IMG/VR virus record: IMGVR_UViG_3300029084_000003
Source of the DNA: a virus
Length of the DNA: 44,044 bases
Direction: 5' to 3' (one strand)
The notes under the pieces were generated by a model. The model did not search any database. It was given only the letters and a program-made list of their open reading frames with translations, and had not been told where the DNA came from. Made by a program: the position numbers and the translations under genes. Below are positions 1,580-34,874 of the stretch, in pieces (position 1 is the first letter of the stretch; every line of letters begins with the position of its first letter).

Positions 1580-4500
1580 TTAATAAACACCCCTTCCATG
1601 TCTTTCTCTGATTGTGTTTTGCTTATCCAGCTCATTAATTGTTGGGTACAACCATTTGCCAATTTCGCGGTTATTTTCCAGCACCACTTTGCCTTCAGTA
1701 CGTTGTGTATGATTAATCTGATAAATTGTTAATTCGATCAGTCTTGCAAGCAAATCCTCAACACGACTATTGCCACCACTATAAATGCTGGTAACAAAGG
1801 TTTGCGGATTCAATTGGTTTATTCTATTAGCAGCGCCTCCGAAGTCTGTGGTGCCGCCAGCAAAACGTGGAATCGAGTAGTTTCTTGCGGACTGCATGGC
1901 AGTTTCAATTTTTGTATGTCGAGGAAGTGGTAAGGTAACATTTCGCCCATATGCCACAAATTTTGCTCCATTTGGTAGTGTGACGACCTCTTGATAACGA
2001 GTGCCAGATGCGTCGTTAATAGTTGCTAATCCACCGGTAAAGTTTTGAGTGCCTCGTGCAAACTTGCCACTGTTCAAAAGTCGTTGTACAGCGGGATCAA
2101 TATCTGCACTAATCCTGAATGTTTTTGTGATGGTAGCATTGCCACCGAATGCAGCAACCGCATTAACACCAATTTGTGACGCTGATGAAACACCATCTGC
2201 GTTACCATTGAAAAACATCATAATCGGTACTTTGCTGTTAAACGATGTTATGCTACTTTTACCTGACTTAGATGCTCCATCAACGCTTCCCGAATTTCCT
2301 TGGAAGAAACGCATGAGAGGATTTGTAGCGTTGAAGCTGCCTATTTCTTCCTTTCCTTTTTCCGCATGATTTGTCACGCTGCTTGAATCGCCGGGAAACA
2401 GTTTTAATCCCGGCAATACCTCGTTATACTTAGCAATACTCGTTCCGCCTGAAGATGATTCATGTTTAACCTTACTTGCATCGGCAGGGAACAGTTTTAA
2501 TCCCGGTAGAACTTCGTTGTATTTCTGAATGCTCCCTTTGGCTTCTTCTGTTTTTCCAAGCACATCAGTATTATTTGCTTTTAGCCCTTTTTCGTTGGGG
2601 TTCTTAAACAAATTATATTGATCAATTGCAACTCCAGCTTTTTCCAATTTTGTACGAGCATCGGAATCGTTCATCAACAGACTTTTGGTAGAGTTTGGAA
2701 GGCTGTTCCAAAGACCGTATTTAACAACCATATCGGCTAAGTCGGATTTGCCTTTGGTCTGCATAATAGCAGTTTTTTCTTCTATTGATAGGCCATTCCA
2801 CTCTCCGGCTTTGATCATGGCCTGGACTAAGCCTGCAGAAGCCTTATCTTTAACGATTGCTTCTAGCTGGCCAAGAGTTAATCGATTCCAGTCATTTGCT
2901 TTATCAATAGCAGCTATCAAAGAGCTGGTATCGCCCTTTGCTACAGCCTTGATTTCTTTTGGTGTAAGTGTATTCCACAAATTTAGCTGATCAATAATAT
3001 CAGCGATGTCTTGCTTGCCAAAAGAAACTAGGGTTGCATATTTCTGCGTATTTGGAAGCTTGTTCCAAACTCCCATGTCAAAAATGATGTCTTCAAGATC
3101 TTTCTTGCCTTTAGCATTGACAATCGCTTCTTGAACTTTTAAGTCGAGCTTCTGCCACTCGCCGGTTTGCTGAAGTGAAGATACTAATGGCACTGTTGCT
3201 TTATCCTTAACAATGGCTTCTTGCTGTTTCAAGGTGAGATTGTTCCAGTCTCCACTCTTGACTAAAGCATTTACTAAAGGCGTGTAATCGCCCTTCACAA
3301 TTACTTGCTGATCCTTAAGCGACAGACTATTCCAGGAAACAAACTTATCCATAATATCAGCAAGTTGCTCGCGTCCCTGAGTACGGATAATTGCATTCTT
3401 TTCGGGAACGCTCAATTTCTGCCATTGTTCAGATGATGCCAGCGCTTCGACAATCATTTGCTTGGCATTTGATGTAATCTTGGCGTACTTGAGGTCAAAG
3501 ACAAGTTGCTTCCAACCTTTTTTAGTGCTGGCCGTATCTTTCAACACTTCAGGAAGATTTGTTTTAACTTTTCCTGTTTTGGTGTCAAATACAAGATTGT
3601 TCCAGTGGTCACCTGCCTGTTGCGCAGCTTTGCCAAATCCTTCAGTTGCGGCCGCAAAGTCGCGATTACTCTTGACGCCTTTCGCCATAGCATTTTCGTA
3701 ACTATTCATCGCAGACTCTGCTTGCGATGCTGTCAGATGAAAGTCAGTTTGCAGTTCCGCTAGCATTTCGGAGCGAGACGTTCCCTGTGCTTTCATGGCT
3801 TGGATAGCACCGGCATAGAGGCTCTTCATCTTATTCTGGTGATCGCGTTCTAAACCTTCTAAAGCAACGTGACGCATGGTCGCATCATTCTTGAATTCTT
3901 CATTAATTTTTGCTTGTTGCGACTTGTATGCACTGTTTTCTTTGTTAGCAGCGTTCCACATATCTTGATACTGCTCTAGGGCAGCACTCTTAGACATTCG
4001 TGTTCTCTCACCAAGGACAGCTTTGAGCACATTATTCTGTTGTGATCCAGAAATCTGTAGCGTCTTGACAGCCAGTGCGGCATTTTTACGACGGTAGTTA
4101 TCCAACAGTTGATACTGGTCAGCCGTCATCTGTGCTCCGCTCTTGTTAAACGATGCAGTAATGGCTTGGGCCTTTTTGTTGTTGCTTTCCATCTCTTTGA
4201 TTCGCTTAGCGTTAGCGGCTTTTTCCTTAGCGGCCTGCTTTTCAATGTTGTCTGCGGCTTCACCGCCGAGGCTTTTAGCCAATTTCTTTGCTGCTGTCTC
4301 AGACTGATCAGCGGCTTCTTTTGCGGCCTTCGTTAAATCATTGAACCCTTTAGAAATCGTCTTAGCATTCTGGGTGACTGTGTGGTTTGTATCATCAAAA
4401 GCACCAGAAATTTCCCCAGAGGCATCTTTCATTTTGGAAGCAGATCGGTCGGCATCGGCACCAATATCAGTACCCCATCGTGAAGTTCTGTCAGCAGACT

Positions 4501-15318: not shown

Positions 15319-16128
15319 TCAATTTTTGTAATTTTTATTTTTTATTTTCTTGAATTTTGCAAATTTGTTTTCTGATTTCATTTCGTCAAGTTTGTTCATC
15401 ACTTTGATGAGTTGACTCACATCTCGACCTTGCTTAGACAGTCTCTGGATGCATGTGTCTCGGTCAGTGTCGATGAGTATGTGTTCGACATCTCGACTAG
15501 CAAGCAATGTGTCTAGCTTCTCATCTGGATATGTCATGACTAACCACACATGGTCGAAGGTCTGCTCTGCTTTAAGCTTCCGCAGTATCAGCTCATAGAT
15601 TAGCTGCACATAATCATTGGCGTCTATATTGCCCTGATGTAATGGCAGGCCTGTTAACGCCGCCATAAGATGGTCGTAATCATAGACGAGGTCATGCTGT
15701 CCTTGATGTCGCTTGACGTAAGTTGACTTACCACTTGCTGGATAGCCAACGATTACTGTAATCTTCATGGCTCGATGCTGTCCCTTCTTACGCTTGGTTG
15801 TCTCACGTCTCGTCTTCCAATAGTGGCAGTCCCTGCATAAAGCCTGCAGATTATCCGCTTTCGTGCGGTCTTCCCAGTCATCTTCGCTTGGAACAATATG
15901 ATCAACCAATGAGGCTTGCAGGCCACAGCGTTGGCATAAACTGTTGTCTCTAATCAATATCTGCTCACGCAGCTGCTTCCATTCATTACTGTGATAGAAC
16001 CTAAGGTAGTCCGACTGCTGCTCATTCCGCACACGGTTGTACTGCCTATCCGCCTCCGATCTAACACGAGCATTTGCATCAACCAATTGTGGTCTGCCAT
16101 TTATAAAGGCAAGCTTCTTACTTGGCAT
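15319..16128 (-). CDS. HNH endonuclease fused to a P-loop kinase-like NTPase domain
   Basis: N-terminal half: CQRCG...VDHIVP...NLQALCRDCHYWKT (HNH). C-terminal half: MKITVIVGYPASGKSTYV (Walker A) with a later DTDRD motif. Confidence 0.75.
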   Translation of the reverse strand: MPSKKLAFINGRPQLVDANARVRSEADRQYNRVRNEQQSDYLRFYHSNEWKQLREQILIRDNSLCQRCGLQASLVDHIVPSEDDWEDRTKADNLQALCRDCHYWKTRRETTKRKKGQHRAMKITVIVGYPASGKSTYVKRHQGQHDLVYDYDHLMAALTGLPLHQGNIDANDYVQLIYELILRKLKAEQTFDHVWLVMTYPDEKLDTLLASRDVEHILIDTDRDTCIQRLSKQGRDVSQLIKVMNKLDEMKSENKFAKFKKIKNKNYKN

Positions 16129-16654: not shown

Positions 16655-16720
16655 AACTTACACCGCCAACTTGAATGTAGAGGCGAGCTTCCTAATGTCA
16701 CCGATCTGTTCATCTGTCCA

Positions 16721-16749
16721 TTGCATCTACTCGCCTCCTGAAATATAAT
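16721..16749 (+). promoter_or_regulatory. Near-consensus sigma-70 promoter on the plus strand (TTGCAT-17 nt-TATAAT)
   Basis: TTGCAT at 16721..16726, exact 17-nt spacer, TATAAT at 16744..16749. It points away from all neighbouring minus-strand genes. Confidence 0.5.
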
Positions 16750-16754
16750 GACCG

Positions 16755-16840
16755 TGAGCAGTTTGATGACGCTGCTCACATTCTCATGAAGAACTTCCCG
16801 AGTTTTTAAGCCCTCGGATTCGGCTCCGAAAGCTTTTTTG
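16755..16840 (+). ncRNA. Putative small RNA A
   Basis: The 5' hairpin GTGAGCAG/CTGCTCAC (16754..16779) starts at the predicted +1. Ends in short hairpins and a T6 run at 16833..16838. Confidence 0.3.
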
Positions 16841-16924
16841 TTGCTTAAAAAATTTCGATGAGTTAGAAATAAATTGTTCCCAACAGATACTCATTTTCAC
16901 TCCTCTGTAATACCCTATCCTTAG

Positions 16925-16953
16925 GCTCTCGGCCCCCAACCGAGGGCTATTTT
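16925..16953 (+). terminator. Plus-strand intrinsic terminator
   Basis: GCTCTCGG-cccccaa-CCGAGGGC followed by TATTTT. Confidence 0.5.
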
Positions 16954-16988
16954 AGTATCTTCTATCAGGAATGTGCTAATATATATGC

Positions 16989-17090
16989 GTGAGCAGTGTC
17001 CTTTCTCCTCCAAGTCAACCGCTGCTGCTCACACAAGTATTTCGTTTTTTCATTCTTTTGGCTCTTGGACTGGTCTCTGAGGGCTTTTTT
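16989..17090 (+). ncRNA. Putative small RNA B (paralogous 5' hairpin to RNA A)
   Basis: Extended -10 TGCTAATAT (16974..16982). The hairpin GTGAGCAG...CTGCTCAC begins at +1 and has a CU-rich loop CCTTTCTCCTCC. Terminator hairpin plus T6 at 17085..17090. Confidence 0.3.
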
Positions 17091-17091
17091 G

Positions 17092-17120
17092 TTGCACTTT
17101 GTATAAGCTTATATGATAAT
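17092..17120 (+). promoter_or_regulatory. Promoter of the CsbD-like gene (TTGCAC-17 nt-GATAAT)
   Basis: TTGCAC 17092..17097, 17-nt spacer, GATAAT 17115..17120. The RBS AAAGGAGG follows. Confidence 0.55.
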
Positions 17121-17144
17121 TGATGTTAAAAGGAGGTAATATCT

Positions 17145-17363
17145 ATGAGTTTAGATGGTAAAGTCGACAGCACCAAGGACAAGATCTCCGGTAAAGCTAA
17201 AGAAGTTGAAGGCAAAGTAACGGGTGATAAGGCTCGTGAAACACAGGGCAAAGCAGAAGGAATACTTGGCAAGGCCAAGGAAAAGCTTGATGATGCCAAA
17301 GATGCTGTTAAAGATACAGTAGATGATGTGAAAAACAAGCTCAGCACAGATAAGAAAGACTAA
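17145..17363 (+). CDS. CsbD-family general stress protein (moron)
   Basis: 72 aa: MSLDGKVDSTKDKISGKAKEVEGKVTGDKARETQGKAEGILGKAKEKLDDAKDAVKD. This is the typical CsbD repeat pattern. It has its own promoter, RBS and terminator, on the strand opposite the lytic genes. Confidence 0.8.
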   Translation: MSLDGKVDSTKDKISGKAKEVEGKVTGDKARETQGKAEGILGKAKEKLDDAKDAVKDTVDDVKNKLSTDKKD

Positions 17364-17370
17364 TTAACTG

Positions 17371-17393
17371 GCCGGCAAACTGCCGGCTTTTTT
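17371..17393 (+). terminator. Intrinsic terminator of the CsbD-like gene
   Basis: GCCGGCA-aac-TGCCGGC followed by TTTTTT. Confidence 0.8.
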
Positions 17394-17454
17394 GTCGCCT
17401 TTTTAAACCTGTACAAATCCGGTACAAGAGTTTTACAGGTTTGATAAACTCAAT

Positions 17455-17543
17455 TGTTATACTAGTCGTGCAAGGTCGGTCCGCCTTGCAATCACACTTA
17501 CCCCCATACACGCCTTCAGTTCTGGGGAGCTGGAGGCTTTTTT
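17455..17543 (+). ncRNA. Putative small RNA with its extended -10 promoter
   Basis: TGTTATACT at 17455..17463. Hairpin TGCAAGG/CCTTGCA begins at +1 (17469). C-rich single strand ACCCCCA. Terminator GCCTTCAG/CTGGAGGC plus T6 (17512..17543). Confidence 0.35.
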
Positions 17544-17687
17544 GTTGCACAAAAATAGCACCTCACCGTTTGGCGGAGTGCTTTAGTAAATAAAAAGATG
17601 CCAAAGCGTCAATGCCAAATAATATCAACTTTCCCACCCGAAATCTGTGGGCATTGATCCCCGGCCGAGTCTAAAAACTCGGGTAGT

Positions 17688-18335
17688 TCAATTACCAGAG
17701 GACCATTCTTTAAATCTTCCGTTGATTCCGTCTATCCTCGCCCCCATCTTATGTGTATTAACTGATTTTCCCGAATCGATTCCTGCCACATAATCTTGCA
17801 ATTTGCTTTGAGCTATAACTATGTCACTATATGTGCTAATCTCGATTTTGTTGGTAATCGATATCAACTCCTTAGTGACGGCATCTGGATTCACACCTGG
17901 AGGAGTCATAGTAAAGAACTTTGGCTCATTTTCCTCAGGCAAGTACTCACGTTGAATATAACCTGCGTCAGTTTGTCCAAATGCCAAAGCCATGATTTTG
18001 TTACCATTCACTCCGCAAATAACAACAATTTGATTTACACAATTTCCATCTATGTCTTTTGCTCCCTTTAACGTTTCCTTAACAAACTGTTGGATCACAT
18101 TTACGTAAAGTTGCCAGTTTAACTGAGCTCCGTTGCTTTGAACATGTAATCGCTTTATGAAGTCCTTTATTATGTCAGCAACTTGAGCGTTTCCTGTAGT
18201 TGCGATCAAAATGTTTGATTCGGCTAACATAAATTTTTTATAGTTTTCCCCAACCGTTTTTGTTCCTTGAGACATTCTTCCATCTGCCACAATTGAGCAA
18301 AAGTCTTTAGTCAAAAATCCAGAAATAAAGCTCAT
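17688..18335 (-). CDS. Proteasome beta-subunit / HslV-like Ntn hydrolase (Ser1 nucleophile predicted)
   Basis: After Met removal, SFISGFLTKDFCSIVADGRMSQGTKTVGENYKKFMLAESNILIATTGNAQVAD aligns without gaps to the proteasome beta / HslV N-terminus. Residue 1 is Ser/Thr, and Asp17, Arg19, Lys33 and Gly47 are all in register. A later ICG...G segment also matches. The GSG loop is not conserved. Confidence 0.6.
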   Translation of the reverse strand: MSFISGFLTKDFCSIVADGRMSQGTKTVGENYKKFMLAESNILIATTGNAQVADIIKDFIKRLHVQSNGAQLNWQLYVNVIQQFVKETLKGAKDIDGNCVNQIVVICGVNGNKIMALAFGQTDAGYIQREYLPEENEPKFFTMTPPGVNPDAVTKELISITNKIEISTYSDIVIAQSKLQDYVAGIDSGKSVNTHKMGARIDGINGRFKEWSSGN

Positions 18336-18340
18336 TCCTA

Positions 18341-18396
18341 ATCACCTCAAAAAAATAGTACTCCAGCGTGAACTGGAATACTACATTGAGGTGATA
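18341..18396 (-). terminator. Intrinsic terminator nested in an outer stem that pairs with the downstream SD
   Basis: Minus strand: ATCACCTCAA-TGTA-GTATTCCAG-TTCACG-CTGGAGTAC-TA-TTTTTTT-GAGGTGAT-TAGGA-ATG. Inner hairpin plus T7 forms the terminator. The outer arms 18387..18396 and 18341..18350 are complementary and cover the RBS GAGGTGAT of the 17688..18335 gene. Confidence 0.6.
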
Positions 18397-18627
18397 TCTA
18401 ATGTTTTTGGAGTGACAGGCTCCAAAGCGAGCGGACGGAGTTGCACCTTCCTGTTTCAGCATTGAGTAACCGGTATCAATGCCTTCCCTTGTCTGCTGAT
18501 CGCATAATTGATGGCCGAGACCTAAAATAGCGCCATCATGAGCACGTCTGCTGCTTTCCCCATATCCCGTATCCATATGGAGCATTTCTGCAGCGGAGGT
18601 TTTCGCCGCAGTTGAGTCAACTTTGTA

Positions 18628-18704
18628 TGCAACCGGCGGGATTTGAACCCGCGACACCGACGCACGCGCGAACTATAGTCGGTGAGCCGATCTCAATCGG
18701 TTGC
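18628..18704 (-). ncRNA. tRNA-like module 1 (7-bp acceptor, T arm, 16-nt anticodon-position loop)
   Basis: GCAACCG AT TGAG-ATCGG-CTCA CCGAC-[TATAGTTCGCGCGTGC]-GTCGG TGTC GCGGG-TTCAAAT-CCCGC CGGTTGC A. The loop carries the palindrome CGCGCG. Confidence 0.45.
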
Positions 18705-18847
18705 TCCTGTTTCTGCTATCCGAGGCGATGGTTTCTGAGCCCTCGGTTACGGTGGTTCCCACATTGTCTTGAAGTGCAAGGCATGTGACCACGCTTTATA
18801 CTCGCCCACTAGTCCGCGCTAGCAAGCACGCTGGGCTTTACCGGTAA

Positions 18848-18945
18848 TATCGCTGGTCGGGATTTGCACCCGACATGAGCCATTGCCAGCCCCTCTTAAG
18901 CATGCGCATGTACTGGTTGGCGTCTACCTATTCCGCCACAGCGAC
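18848..18945 (-). ncRNA. tRNA-like module 2 (class II-like, oversized anticodon region)
   Basis: GTCGCTG TG GCGG-AATAGGTAGA-CGCC ... CCAG-[23 nt including the palindrome CATGCGCATG]-CTGG ... TCGGG-TGCAAAT-CCCGA ... CAGCGAT A. The D arm resembles tRNA-Leu, but there is no 7-nt anticodon loop. Confidence 0.45.
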
Positions 18946-19255
18946 ACGACACGAATCCTAGATACCGCGCTAGGCCGCTAACGCACAGACAAGTCTCTGG
19001 TGGGACATAATAGCCGTGTCTTGCTACCGTTTTGTATTGCTCGCTCTCCCAGTGTCAGATGGGGTCATCGCAATCTGTGTCCGGTCGCTAAACTGGACAA
19101 AGAACTGTGCCACGACCTGCCGTGGCTGGTCCCGCTCAACCGGGCAGCTCAGCCTCTAAGGAGGCATATAAGTTCACCCTGCTACTCATCGTCATGGTAG
19201 GCGTATTGGTATGTAGTGACGGTAGCTACTCCGTCACAGACCTTCACGGGTGATA

Positions 19256-19320
19256 TGTGGCATGCGGGAATCGAACCCGCCTGACTATCTCAGCCAGTCC
19301 TCATTGCCACGCCTTGCCAC
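19256..19320 (-). ncRNA. tRNA-like module 3 (acceptor + T arm + one hairpin; not a canonical tRNA)
   Basis: Minus strand: GTGGCAA..CTGGCTGAGATAGTCAG GCGGG-TTCGATT-CCCGC ATGCCAC A. The T loop is canonical. There is no D arm, and the anticodon-like loop is non-canonical. Confidence 0.45.
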
Positions 19321-19422
19321 AGCTTTATCATCACTGAGGCTCGGAGGAAAAATGCGGTGTCTCAGGTTTCTCACCTTTGGCACAATACCATCATAAGGCG
19401 GAAAAGCGTGTTTTTTGTTGCA

Positions 19423-19866
19423 TCATTGTTGCACGGATGTTGCAACTAGTTTCACTAGCGGACATATTTCAGCAAAAGCATAGAGAGCTTCTTGTGTTTG
19501 TCGCCAAAGGGTCGTTCGGTCAACATGCAAGTGGTCGGCTAACTGAAGGCTGGATTTACGTGTCGTCTTTGGAGTCAGATAGCTCTCAACTAAAATGATC
19601 CGGTAGTTTTCATTCTCTAGAGATTCAATGGCACCTTCACAGCACGCTATATAGTACAGCTCGTCAGCGTGTGATACGAGTTTGTCCTCGGCTTTATTTC
19701 CATAGCTGGGTGACTTGGGCATGCCGTCCATCACGGGGCTTCTGAGCGCTATTTTGGTGCGTTGAGCGAGCCGCTTGTGATGCCAGTAGTTCCCCAAGAC
19801 CTCTTTGGCGTTTTCAATTGTTTTGTCATGATCAATTGGGCTAAAATATCTCGTTGCTCGCACCAC
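19423..19866 (-). CDS. ArpU-family late transcriptional regulator
   Basis: About 147 aa. Reads NAKEVLGNYWHHKRLA... with a C-terminal sigma-region-4-like SSLQLADHLHVDRTTLWRQTQEALYAFAE. Probable start is the GTG at 19866, 8 nt after AAGGAG. Confidence 0.7.
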   Translation of the reverse strand: MVRATRYFSPIDHDKTIENAKEVLGNYWHHKRLAQRTKIALRSPVMDGMPKSPSYGNKAEDKLVSHADELYYIACCEGAIESLENENYRIILVESYLTPKTTRKSSLQLADHLHVDRTTLWRQTQEALYAFAEICPLVKLVATSVQQ

Positions 19867-34767: not shown

Positions 34768-34874
34768 CGACAAAAAGCGCCTACCCAAGCGAATGGGTAG
34801 ACGCCTAACAGAACGTGACTGCATGGTTAGGTGCAATAGCACCCGTCTGTATTGTAGCACAAGGAGGTGTAAAT

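Follow-up and report, generated by a model that had tools for sequence, protein, structure and literature searches.

A mosaic array of non-decoding tRNA-like elements behind arpU in Lacticaseibacillus phages: a candidate late noncoding precursor RNA

The viral DNA considered here (IMG/VR record IMGVR_UViG_3300029084_000003; 44,044 nucleotides (nt), the whole of which is called the window) carries, directly downstream of the gene arpU, a minus-strand stretch (18349-19422) in which direct reading of the sequence finds no credible open reading frame (ORF), a raised content of guanine plus cytosine (GC) and an intrinsic terminator at the end. The stretch is an array of four elements shaped like transfer RNA (tRNA), T1 to T4, interleaved with other modules. 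These elements are not bona fide tRNAs and fit no described RNA family, and they are selected for shape, not for decoding; evidence for this includes covariation in T1, the common architecture of two unrelated types of T1, and compensatory changes in modules D and B and in one insert of T2. The reading that we favour, at roughly even chances, is that the stretch is a late-expressed, modular noncoding precursor, which forms the ArpU-dependent 5' leader in a temperate Lacticaseibacillus phage and is cut at its tRNA-like elements into stable RNAs, with T2 and the T3 family providing frames for exchangeable inserts. It builds on the anatomy of the array, its mosaicism, the conservation of structure within it and its promoter-like context, all of which are observed.

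The tRNA-like elements and why they are not tRNAs

The window was scanned for strict frames, defined as a 7-base-pair (bp) acceptor stem and a 5-bp T stem with a T-loop of the form T-[TG]-C-[AG]-A-N-N. Exactly three were found (19321-19256, 18945-18849 and 18704-18629), and none in 30 shuffles. Their T arms, on the minus strand, are GCGGG-TTCGATT-CCCGC (19280-19264), TCGGG-TGCAAAT-CCCGA (18873-18857) and GCGGG-TTCAAAT-CCCGC (18652-18636). A preliminary description of this DNA had already named three tRNA-like modules; all three are recovered by the strict scan, to which a fourth, degenerate frame (~18504-18427) must be added. The T-arm motifs, palindromes and hairpins listed there are likewise found on direct reading to within one base, the T arm of T2 being the one that moves by a base, and the modules do lie on the transcribed (minus) strand, as had been stated. 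The four elements are as follows.

19322-19255, minus strand: T1, ~66 nt, with acceptor TGTGGCA/TGCCACA, a canonical T arm, no D arm and no encoded CCA
18945-18847, minus strand: T2, a tRNA-Leu-like frame with a 7-bp acceptor, a class-II D arm GCGGAATAGGTAGACGC and the T loop TGCAAAT (G at position 55)
18704-18628, minus strand: T3, a cloverleaf with acceptor GCAACCG/CGGTTGC, a short D arm and a canonical T arm
18504-18427, minus strand: T4, within module E2, with no D arm, acceptor GCGATC/GCTCGC, hairpin GCATTGA/TCAATGC and T arm GGAAGG-TGCAACT-CCGTCC

It is therefore T1 that lacks a D arm and not, as first described, the third module, which has a short one. The features of a tRNA-like minihelix, namely a 7-bp acceptor on a 5-bp T stem with its T-loop, and compensatory change, are all present. 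Those of a canonical tRNA (a cloverleaf, a 7-nt anticodon loop with U33 and a score above a detector threshold) are not found together in these elements. ARAGORN at its default settings calls no tRNA gene in the window; once its thresholds are lowered and introns permitted, it reports T1, T2 and T3 as tRNAs with introns and of inconsistent identity, T3 only with an 11-nt 'intron'. The covariance model for canonical tRNA (RF00005) gives no match over 18200-19600 with permissive filters, and the best scores in the tRNA clan are 25.5 bits for T1 (tRNA-Sec; threshold 47) and 17.7 bits for T3 (transfer-messenger RNA (tmRNA); threshold 47), other hits being no better than chance. The non-canonical character first ascribed to the modules is thus confirmed, and relaxed searching with a tRNA finder reveals no bona fide tRNAs among them.

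The strongest evidence for conserved structure comes from T1. Its hairpin has a 7-nt loop with G at position 33, which is not an anticodon loop, and the 'anticodon' positions vary. Across 21 distinct sequences the standard pairs are kept in 97.3% of cells, and double-sided changes are seen at six pairs; the covariation score reaches 0.396 as against 0.172 in shuffles (0/500 reach the observed value) and falls to 0.06 or less when the partners are slid by 1-3 columns. T1 is under structure-preserving covariation. At some related loci the T1 slot holds an unrelated sequence, GAGGCCG...CGGCCTC, which has the same architecture and a 5-nt loop. In T3, a 5-bp anticodon-type stem closes a 16-nt loop that contains the palindrome CGCGCG (18670-18665); the wider T3 family has at least seven unrelated bodies but a common acceptor, GCAACYG/CRGTTGC, within which a C-G to U-A switch occurs. 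T4 is degenerate in the window, where its acceptor stem and its T stem each contain one mismatch; in the consensus fold of E2 homologues these stems are perfect (GCGAGC/GCUCGC and GGACGG/CCGUCC).

None of 111 unique frames encodes CCA, and in 106 of them a U follows directly after the discriminator. Precursors that lack CCA are processed in Bacillus subtilis by RNase Z, and U-rich trailers favour this enzyme. The frames would thus appear suited to RNase Z, although this support is indirect, and both cleavage and CCA addition are predictions from sequence.

Mosaic architecture and the universal core

Related loci were gathered from IMG/VR with two exact motifs and combined with GenBank loci to give 111 non-identical sequences; module C was the search motif for this collection, and its presence in 111/111 loci is by construction. 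In a BLAST search of GenBank phages the whole stretch is matched, at 99.6-99.7% identity, by the Lacticaseibacillus phages R3.1 (classified in Junavirus), R9.1 and R29.1, and partial, piecewise matches are found in ~44 further Lacticaseibacillus phages (A2, Lrm1, Lc-Nu, BH1, iLp84, PLE3, CL1/2, J-1 and others). The match starts right behind the arpU stop codon in the 11 loci among these relatives that were fetched and examined, and pairwise mapping of relatives gives sharp module borders. The modules, in their order on the minus strand and with the number of loci that have each, are these.

19405-19323, minus strand: A1, 109/111 loci
19322-19255, minus strand: T1, 100/111 loci
19254-19101, minus strand: B, 17/111 loci
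19100-19038, minus strand: C, 111/111 loci (search motif)
19037-18948, minus strand: C', 5/111 loci
18944-18847, minus strand: T2, 26/111 loci
18846-18709, minus strand: D, 11/111 loci
18708-18625, minus strand: T3, 4/111 loci
18624-18509, minus strand: E1, 6/111 loci
18508-18385, minus strand: E2 (holds T4), 23/111 loci
18384-18349, minus strand: terminator module, 37/111 loci

The universal core consists of A1, T1 and C alone, ~214 nt; all other modules are optional and assort independently over the 111 loci, two of which have the complete layout of the window. Such variation around so small a core would not be tolerated by an RNA with one integrated fold, and the single giant RNA of the preliminary description is not supported. 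Covariation in the core taken as a whole is weak, the sequences being ~90% identical.

The other modules are of several kinds. B is a 154-nt optional insert placed exactly between T1 and C, which folds as a three-way junction and three hairpins; it is cleanly missing in A2, iLp84, Lc-Nu and others and is ~97% identical in the herellevirus Lbab1. Two of its pairs show compensatory changes, and its stems are depleted in variable columns. D, an optional hairpin module of 138 nt, has double-sided changes at pairs 14-46, 18-42, 68-84, 69-83 and 70-82. E1 (116 nt, optional) has four hairpins and 86% identity to Lbab1 and Lb338-1, while C' (90 nt, optional) is common to Lrm1, Lc-Nu and Lbab1. C itself, 63 nt long, is almost invariant, has two predicted hairpins and also occurs in Lbab1. 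A strict frame ends directly before C in 82/111 loci, and one begins directly after it in 47/111.

Folding energies were compared with those of shuffled sequences of the same composition. T1 (z = -3.25) and T3 (z = -2.40) fold clearly better than their shuffles. The other modules range from -1.7 to +0.4; B is marginal among them (z = -1.72), and the rest, including C (z = -0.72) and C' (z = +0.43), are like eight coding controls. The GC content is 0.53-0.55 over 18450-19349 as against 0.37-0.45 on either side, in agreement with the earlier impression of a GC-rich stretch, and lies ~10 points above that of the genome. Since T1 and T3 alone clearly beat their shuffles, the 'hairpin-dense' appearance that had been remarked upon largely reflects GC content; the individual hairpins are present, and folding above the level of shuffles is clear only in these two modules.

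T2, a constant frame with exchangeable inserts

The 5' part of the T2 frame is constant (ATCGCTG-TG-GCGGAATAGGTAGACGC, the acceptor strand and a class-II, Leu-type D arm), as is the 3' part (ATG-TCGGG-TGCAAAT-CCCGA-C-CAGCGAT-A). In place of the anticodon and variable arms, T2 of the window has a 45-nt insert that holds the palindrome CATGCGCATG (18910-18901) and keeps the motif CTTAAGA without its stem, which is plausibly the remnant of a tRNA-Leu (UAA) anticodon loop. The palindrome AUGCGCAU is kept, with one G-U variant, within the insert type to which the window belongs. Over 69 loci, including 16 metagenome contigs, the inserts fall into 10 clusters at 70% identity, with lengths of 32-161 nt; two pairs of clusters are distantly related, which leaves ~8 truly unrelated types. 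The minimum free energy fold keeps the acceptor and T arms in 15/15 T2 representatives, and one insert type shows a clean compensatory change from GACGC/GCGTC to GACAC/GTGTC. The long inserts, searched in four loci, gave no Rfam family, ribozyme or intron. Within a type, nucleotide diversity is 0.014-0.026 in the insert and 0.018-0.058 in the 5' frame, and the flanks are unrelated. Thus, the insert is as conserved as the frame in otherwise unrelated surroundings, so that each T2 variant behaves like a conserved cassette moved between contexts and not like drifting junk. The suggestion that the stretch is a tRNA-scaffolded RNA therefore survives at the level of the single module, where a constant frame takes exchangeable, unrelated inserts, but not for the stretch as a whole.

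An engineered 'tRNA scaffold' for the expression of recombinant RNA was reportedly introduced by Ponchon and Dardel in 2007. T2 resembles it in that the acceptor, D and T arms are constant, the anticodon arm is replaced by unrelated RNAs of 32-161 nt, and the frame folds in all variants; it differs in being a natural locus, in which the inserts may be functional cargo and the frame may stabilise them. We suggest, as a tentative idea to which we would not give much weight, that T2 and the T3 family serve as natural scaffolds of tRNA shape, processed and stabilised by host enzymes, whose swapped inserts would be late effectors, for example a decoy or sponge for host defences that target tRNA or are guided by RNA, or, in herelleviruses, a client or partner of ROOL cages. 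The AUGCGCAU loop could allow mutual pairing.

Relationship to ROOL and GOLLD

ROOL and GOLLD are large noncoding RNA loci of Lactobacillales phages that adjoin tRNAs (PMC5737381, PMC12286853). GOLLD has a variable 5' part and embeds tRNAs, and both lie near tRNA islands (PMC12286853). It was proposed that the stretch could belong to one of these classes, and this was not borne out when the Rfam models were run. No Rfam 15 model matches the window at its gathering score, and over 18200-19600 with permissive filters there is no ROOL or GOLLD match even at E<=10; neither the 574-position ROOL model RF03087 (at least 99.1 bits required) nor the GOLLD model RF01998, with its universally conserved 3' domain, is matched. 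The same tool finds ROOL at 201.5 bits in Lbab1 and 213.5 bits in Lb338-1, and BLAST with these two ROOL sequences finds nothing in the window or at any arpU locus. Rfam searches of the window, 16 related loci and the four loci with long T2 inserts returned only tRNA, ROOL in the herelleviruses and weak tmRNA-like matches.

There is, however, a link of another kind. Copies of B, C, C', T2 and E1 that are 86-97% identical stand immediately 3' of ROOL in the virulent phages Lbab1 and Lb338-1. The order in Lbab1 is tRNA-Arg, ROOL (2324-2896), a tRNA-like element (2916-3022), B, C, C', further modules, a T2-type 3' end, E1 and an aberrant tRNA. T2 lies within ~64 nt after ROOL in Lb338-1 and in the IMG/VR contig L023, and further away in the metagenome contig L277. 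Among the loci collected, ROOL homologues occur in the four herellevirus-type loci only and never downstream of arpU. As the modules are shared without ROOL, the window carries companions of ROOL and not ROOL itself; the ROOL-type context claimed for it stands in this sense, through modules that recur beside bona fide ROOL, although the link is indirect. The array thus resembles ROOL and GOLLD as a noncoding locus beside tRNAs in a Lactobacillales phage, with modules that match those 3' of ROOL in Lbab1 and Lb338-1, and differs in having neither a model match nor a conserved large core; the homologous DNA of Lbab1 lies outside the ROOL match. The level of identity between siphoviruses and herelleviruses (86-97%) indicates, as judged from the sequences, recent exchange among phages of the same host group.

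In the herellevirus-type loci (Lbab1, L003, 2163-3022; Lb338-1, L006, 2365-3105; L023, 3147-4160; L277, 240-1090), ROOL lies ~88 nt after a tRNA-Arg (CCU). A tRNA-like frame lies ~20-64 nt past ROOL in three of the four and further off in L277, which is fragmentary. By analogy with MALAT1 and mascRNA, the ends of ROOL might be set by RNase Z and RNase P cutting at the flanking tRNA and tRNA-like elements.

Promoter region, leader and terminator

The gene upstream of the array encodes an ArpU-family late activator (phrog_248). ArpU and its relatives, the Ltr proteins, recognise three direct repeats of 7 nt just past the end of the gene that encodes them, and by binding there they activate a late promoter in the same intergenic region (Quiles-Puchalt et al. 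2013; PMC3753634). The corresponding features in the window are listed below, together with those at the other end of the array.

19444-19438, 19433-19427 and 19422-19416, minus strand: three copies of TGCAACA, the putative ArpU boxes, with an 11-nt period and straddling the arpU stop codon (direct reading)
19395-19382, minus strand: -10-like element TATGATGGTATTGT, comprising TATGAT (19395-19390) and an extended -10-like TGgTATTGT (19390-19382), of a putative ArpU-dependent late promoter
19381-19323, minus strand: leader, the rest of A1, between the putative transcription start and T1; highly conserved
18426-18406, minus strand: terminal hairpin TTTGGAG/CTCCAAA (direct reading)
18384-18349, minus strand: intrinsic terminator with a 13-bp stem (18384-18355) and a T run to 18349 that abuts the ribosome binding site of the next gene (ATG 18335)

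The layout of at least three direct repeats of ~7 nt distal to the activator gene, followed by a promoter-like element, is thus present in the sequence, and as in the published Ltr/ArpU late promoters (PMC3753634) the repeats are three, of 7 nt, specific to the type of activator and upstream of the putative late promoter; the staphylococcal examples differ in having a short leader without RNA genes. We infer that 19444-19382 comprises the ArpU boxes and the late promoter. Evidence for specificity is found in relatives whose ArpU proteins have other C-termini, where the repeats at the same place are GCGAACT, GCGGACA, TGAGACC, GAGGACT or TGGGAA; behind all these alternative sets stands the invariant TATGATNGTATTGTGCC. 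The -10-like element is itself invariant in ~100 loci. A1 as a whole (19405-19323) shows no clear structure (z = -0.88). Similar arrangements occur more widely: the Enterococcus phages phiFL2A and phiEf11 have three copies of TTGGCGG, and Limosilactobacillus reuteri phage LR1 (L294, ~1915-1990) has four direct repeats containing GGCGG and, behind them, the -10 motif of the Lacticaseibacillus phages, TATTATGGTATTGT. From the last box to the -10 hexamer is 20-21 nt in the window, LR1 and phiFL2A alike. Because the repeats and the -10 motif match the published ArpU/Ltr design, the late transcript probably has the array as its 5' leader.

At its other end, the preliminary description of a strong intrinsic terminator is upheld. 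As its T run touches the ribosome binding site of the next gene, the late genes would have to be reached by read-through. Across the collection, a terminator-like site follows C in 106/111 loci, compared with 52/111 on a reverse-complement control. Downstream come, in order, a 215-amino-acid Ntn-hydrolase-like gene, an HNH/P-loop gene, terS and terL.

The slot between arpU and the packaging genes holds tRNAs in some relatives: a called tRNA-Met in Lrm1, tRNA-Ile in iLp84 and a called tRNA-Leu in A2. In phiFL2A (L292, 1897-2690), the ArpU phage that has been studied by experiment, the arpU-terS gap is 795 nt and has a tRNA-Arg (ACG) at 2497-2571, the other ~700 nt being uncharacterised; in phiEf11 the gap is 464 nt and has a tRNA-Asn. 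Those tRNAs that ARAGORN calls at the homologous locus mostly have anticodon loops of 6 or 8 nt, and only the tRNA-Ile (UAU) of iLp84 looks canonical. In LR1, ~1.2 kb behind the arpU homologue is unannotated in the record and contains no tRNA and no Rfam match.

A proposed mechanism and its alternatives

According to the scheme that we favour, the array is laid out as ArpU boxes and -10 element, a short leader, the non-decoding elements T1-T4 interleaved with B, C, C', D and E1, and then the terminator. ArpU would turn it on late in infection. Host RNase P would recognise the acceptor/T-arm minihelices and cut at their 5' ends, and RNase Z would cut at the 3' ends, which the CCA-adding enzyme would complete; the last two are expected because no frame encodes CCA. 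From the precursor these cuts would yield stable RNAs of tRNA shape along with small hairpin RNAs, with C released as a discrete RNA of ~63 nt, and the late genes would be expressed through read-through of the terminator. T2 and the T3 family would act as constant frames carrying exchangeable inner inserts, and recombination would swap modules between phages, often at the conserved ends of frames, including the virulent herelleviruses with their ROOL-flanking modules. A role for the processed RNAs is most likely to be sought in conflict between phage and host around factors that bind or cleave tRNA.

Several points weigh against this scheme. Transcription (including its start), the sites of processing, the stability of the products and their function are what we infer from the anatomy of the array. 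A generic sigma-70 scan of the minus strand called no promoter at 19380-19400, the scan being silent because it requires a -35 element and none is present. Counts of covariation rest on few independent lineages, as most of the sequences are ~90% identical, and the many copies of T1 that have C behind them raise the apparent preference for U after the discriminator. The constancy of the 3' part of T2 is partly a matter of ascertainment, because a 23-nt pattern from it was used in collecting the loci; the 5' frame and six copies derived from BLAST are independent of this pattern. Several spacer modules are no more stable in their folds than shuffled sequence. Finally, double-sided covariation was looked for in C and none was found; as C is almost invariant and has one-sided changes only, it could act through its own sequence or at the level of DNA.

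This last point leads to an alternative that is compatible with the favoured scheme and to which we would assign a low but real likelihood, namely that the stretch is a cis-acting leader of the late operon. Transcripts from the ArpU promoter would end at the terminator ahead of the first late gene unless an element of the leader, for which C is the best candidate, made RNA polymerase resistant to terminators, as do put RNAs in phage HK022 or the leader that precedes lambda tR', or unless processing altered the fate of the mRNA, the tRNA-like pieces being passengers or processing signals. The universality and near-invariance of C, together with its lack of covariation, are as a sequence-specific contact would predict, and a position right behind the ArpU boxes and -10 element suits a leader. 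The order of promoter, invariant C and terminator fits an antiterminator of the put or EAR type in its layout alone. Terminator-like sites follow C in almost all loci, and in the window the T run leaves no space for another promoter before the next gene; but such sites are also present, at about half the frequency, on the reverse-complement control. C bears no likeness to known put or EAR sequences and has no Rfam match, and it is also found in the tRNA/ROOL island of Lbab1, far from any arpU gene. Nor would such a leader explain why T1 conserves the shape of a tRNA or why T2 takes exchangeable inserts. It is somewhat less probable again that the array is a decaying phage tRNA cluster in which decoding has been lost, the spacers are junk and recombination shuffles the neutral remains. 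The true tRNAs that occupy the slot in some relatives, the Leu-type D arm and CTTAAGA loop remnant of T2, the 6- or 8-nt anticodon loops of many called tRNAs, the degenerate T4 and the spacers without thermodynamic signal would all be expected of decay. It does not account for T1, which is retained in 100/111 loci, has 97% of its cells in pairs and shows compensatory changes, nor for the two unrelated sequences that adopt the same non-decoding architecture in its slot. Frames have stayed intact while their middle was replaced, by inserts as conserved as the frame within each type; the hairpins of D and B have stayed paired through double changes; modules are 86-97% identical between siphoviruses and herelleviruses; and GC stands ~10 points above the genome.

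The remaining alternative is a single giant structured RNA of ~1 kb, either a divergent relative of ROOL or GOLLD or a new class, that self-assembles through palindromic loops. One promoter-like element and one terminator bracket the stretch, which makes a primary transcript of ~1 kb plausible; GOLLD offers a precedent for a variable 5' part with embedded tRNAs, and both classes lie near tRNA islands (PMC12286853). The self-complementary AUGCGCAU and CGCGCG do lie in exposed loops, and modules are held in common with ROOL-flanking DNA. Yet the 1.4-kb query with lax filters matched neither model at E<=10, ROOL homologues are confined to the herellevirus-type loci and never follow arpU, and the modules shared with Lbab1 fall outside its ROOL match. 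With 214 nt universal, the window architecture in 2/111 loci and the other modules dispensable, and with long-range pairing unsupported among full-length copies that are >99% identical, we regard this as highly improbable.

Comparison with known systems

It is already known that tRNA genes occur in the slot behind arpU and that tRNA islands lie beside ROOL and GOLLD. A literature search turned up no account of non-decoding tRNA-like elements arrayed where an ArpU-dependent late transcript begins, and none of a natural frame of tRNA shape that takes many unrelated inserts. Phage tRNA clusters, including those between arpU and terS in phiFL2A and phiEf11, resemble the array in their slot between late activator and packaging genes, on the same strand, and in having CCA-less tRNA-shaped genes. 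They differ from it in that the four elements of the window cannot decode (owing to G33, a 16-nt loop or a 45-nt insert) and do not pass tRNA thresholds, and in that its frames are interleaved with conserved hairpin modules, one frame having exchangeable inserts. The tRNA cluster of phage T4 also has co-transcribed stable RNAs, C and D, of unknown function.

Processing signals that resemble tRNA are found in mascRNA, at the 3' end of MALAT1, and in the tRNA-microRNA (TMER) genes of murid herpesvirus 68. T1 and T4 are like these in size (~65-78 nt) and in build: an acceptor stem and a T arm are joined by a single further hairpin, while a proper D arm and a usable anticodon are both missing. They are also predicted to be embedded in a longer transcript, with hairpin RNAs directly after them. 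The mascRNA-menRNA model gives a weak match of 17.9 bits, far under the family threshold of 42.5. The comparison is limited in that mascRNA and TMER are eukaryotic and transcribed by RNA polymerase II or III, whereas processing in the window is only predicted.

If the favoured scheme is correct, these would be a new class of phage small RNAs, non-decoding tRNA look-alikes that head a late operon and have exchangeable inserts, for which the precursor, the likely enzymes and the ends can be predicted. Inducible Lacticaseibacillus prophages offer more than 100 natural variants, some of them in probiotic or dairy strains, which makes experiments feasible. The adjacency to ROOL suggests a route to the 3' end of ROOL (through RNase P) and to RNAs co-expressed with it, and so bears on the role of ROOL and GOLLD cages. 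It also matters for annotation: such gaps are now left unannotated, filled with spurious ORFs or credited with tRNAs that have impossible anticodon loops.

Coding content, neighbouring genes and further loci

From the arpU stop codon (19425-19423) to the start codon of the next gene (ATG 18335), no ORF is longer than 66 amino acids with one exception, a 116-amino-acid GTG ORF (18307-18657) that crosses the terminator and enters the next gene. Searches of Pfam and PHROG gave no match to it, and it sits on modules that are missing or different in most relatives; a protein-coding reading was rejected on these grounds, and the earlier statement that the stretch holds no believable ORF stands. A plus-strand ORF in B, with a strong Shine-Dalgarno-like AAGGAGG and a hydrophobic stretch, was considered as a type I toxin and dropped because it has no well-placed start codon and relatives have three substitutions (VLVC to VSGR). 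A reading as attP or integrase site was also rejected, the 15-nt likeness of the T2 D arm to 34791-34805 being to a terminator-like hairpin before the integrase gene. Antisense targets sought inside the 44-kb window gave matches of 12 nt or fewer, none above chance.

The first gene past the array (17688-18335, minus strand) encodes 215 amino acids with a sub-threshold proteasome/Ntn-hydrolase match (Pfam PF00227, 21.4 bits; PHROG 13232, unknown function). Relatives have a 382-amino-acid 'GcrA-like' protein or a methylase at this position instead, and with first genes that differ in this way no protein partner is consistently tied to the array. Just upstream of terS (15319-16128, minus strand) is a gene for a 269-amino-acid protein with an HNH endonuclease and an AAA_33 P-loop kinase-like domain (PHROG 4581); AAA_33 is a broad fold family that includes polynucleotide kinases, and this half of the protein could bear on RNA end chemistry.

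A scan of genome contigs with an 18-nt pattern (16 specified bases) gave almost entirely chance matches in unrelated phyla and one real match, in Lacticaseibacillus chiayiensis (L171). Array modules are also present in three PLSDB records of 35-43-kb Lacticaseibacillus paracasei 'plasmids' (NZ_CP094948.1, NZ_CP094960.1 and NZ_CP080340.1), which, judged on size and content, are probably circular phage genomes or phage-plasmids. JNU_P10 (L007, 1487-2500) and R24.2 (L010, 1431-2456) have ~1-kb gaps behind arpU with a different set of modules and no Rfam match; ~170 nt beyond the first terminator-like site are common to these two alone.

Contrary to the preliminary description, the phage is not otherwise packed gene to gene, for there is a second ORF-poor stretch of ~1 kb at 16655-17687. 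It has one convincing gene, on the opposite strand: a lysine/aspartate-rich, CsbD-like ORF of 72 amino acids (17145-17363, plus strand). The stretch also has a plus-strand terminator-like hairpin (17512-17537). This second stretch looks like a moron.

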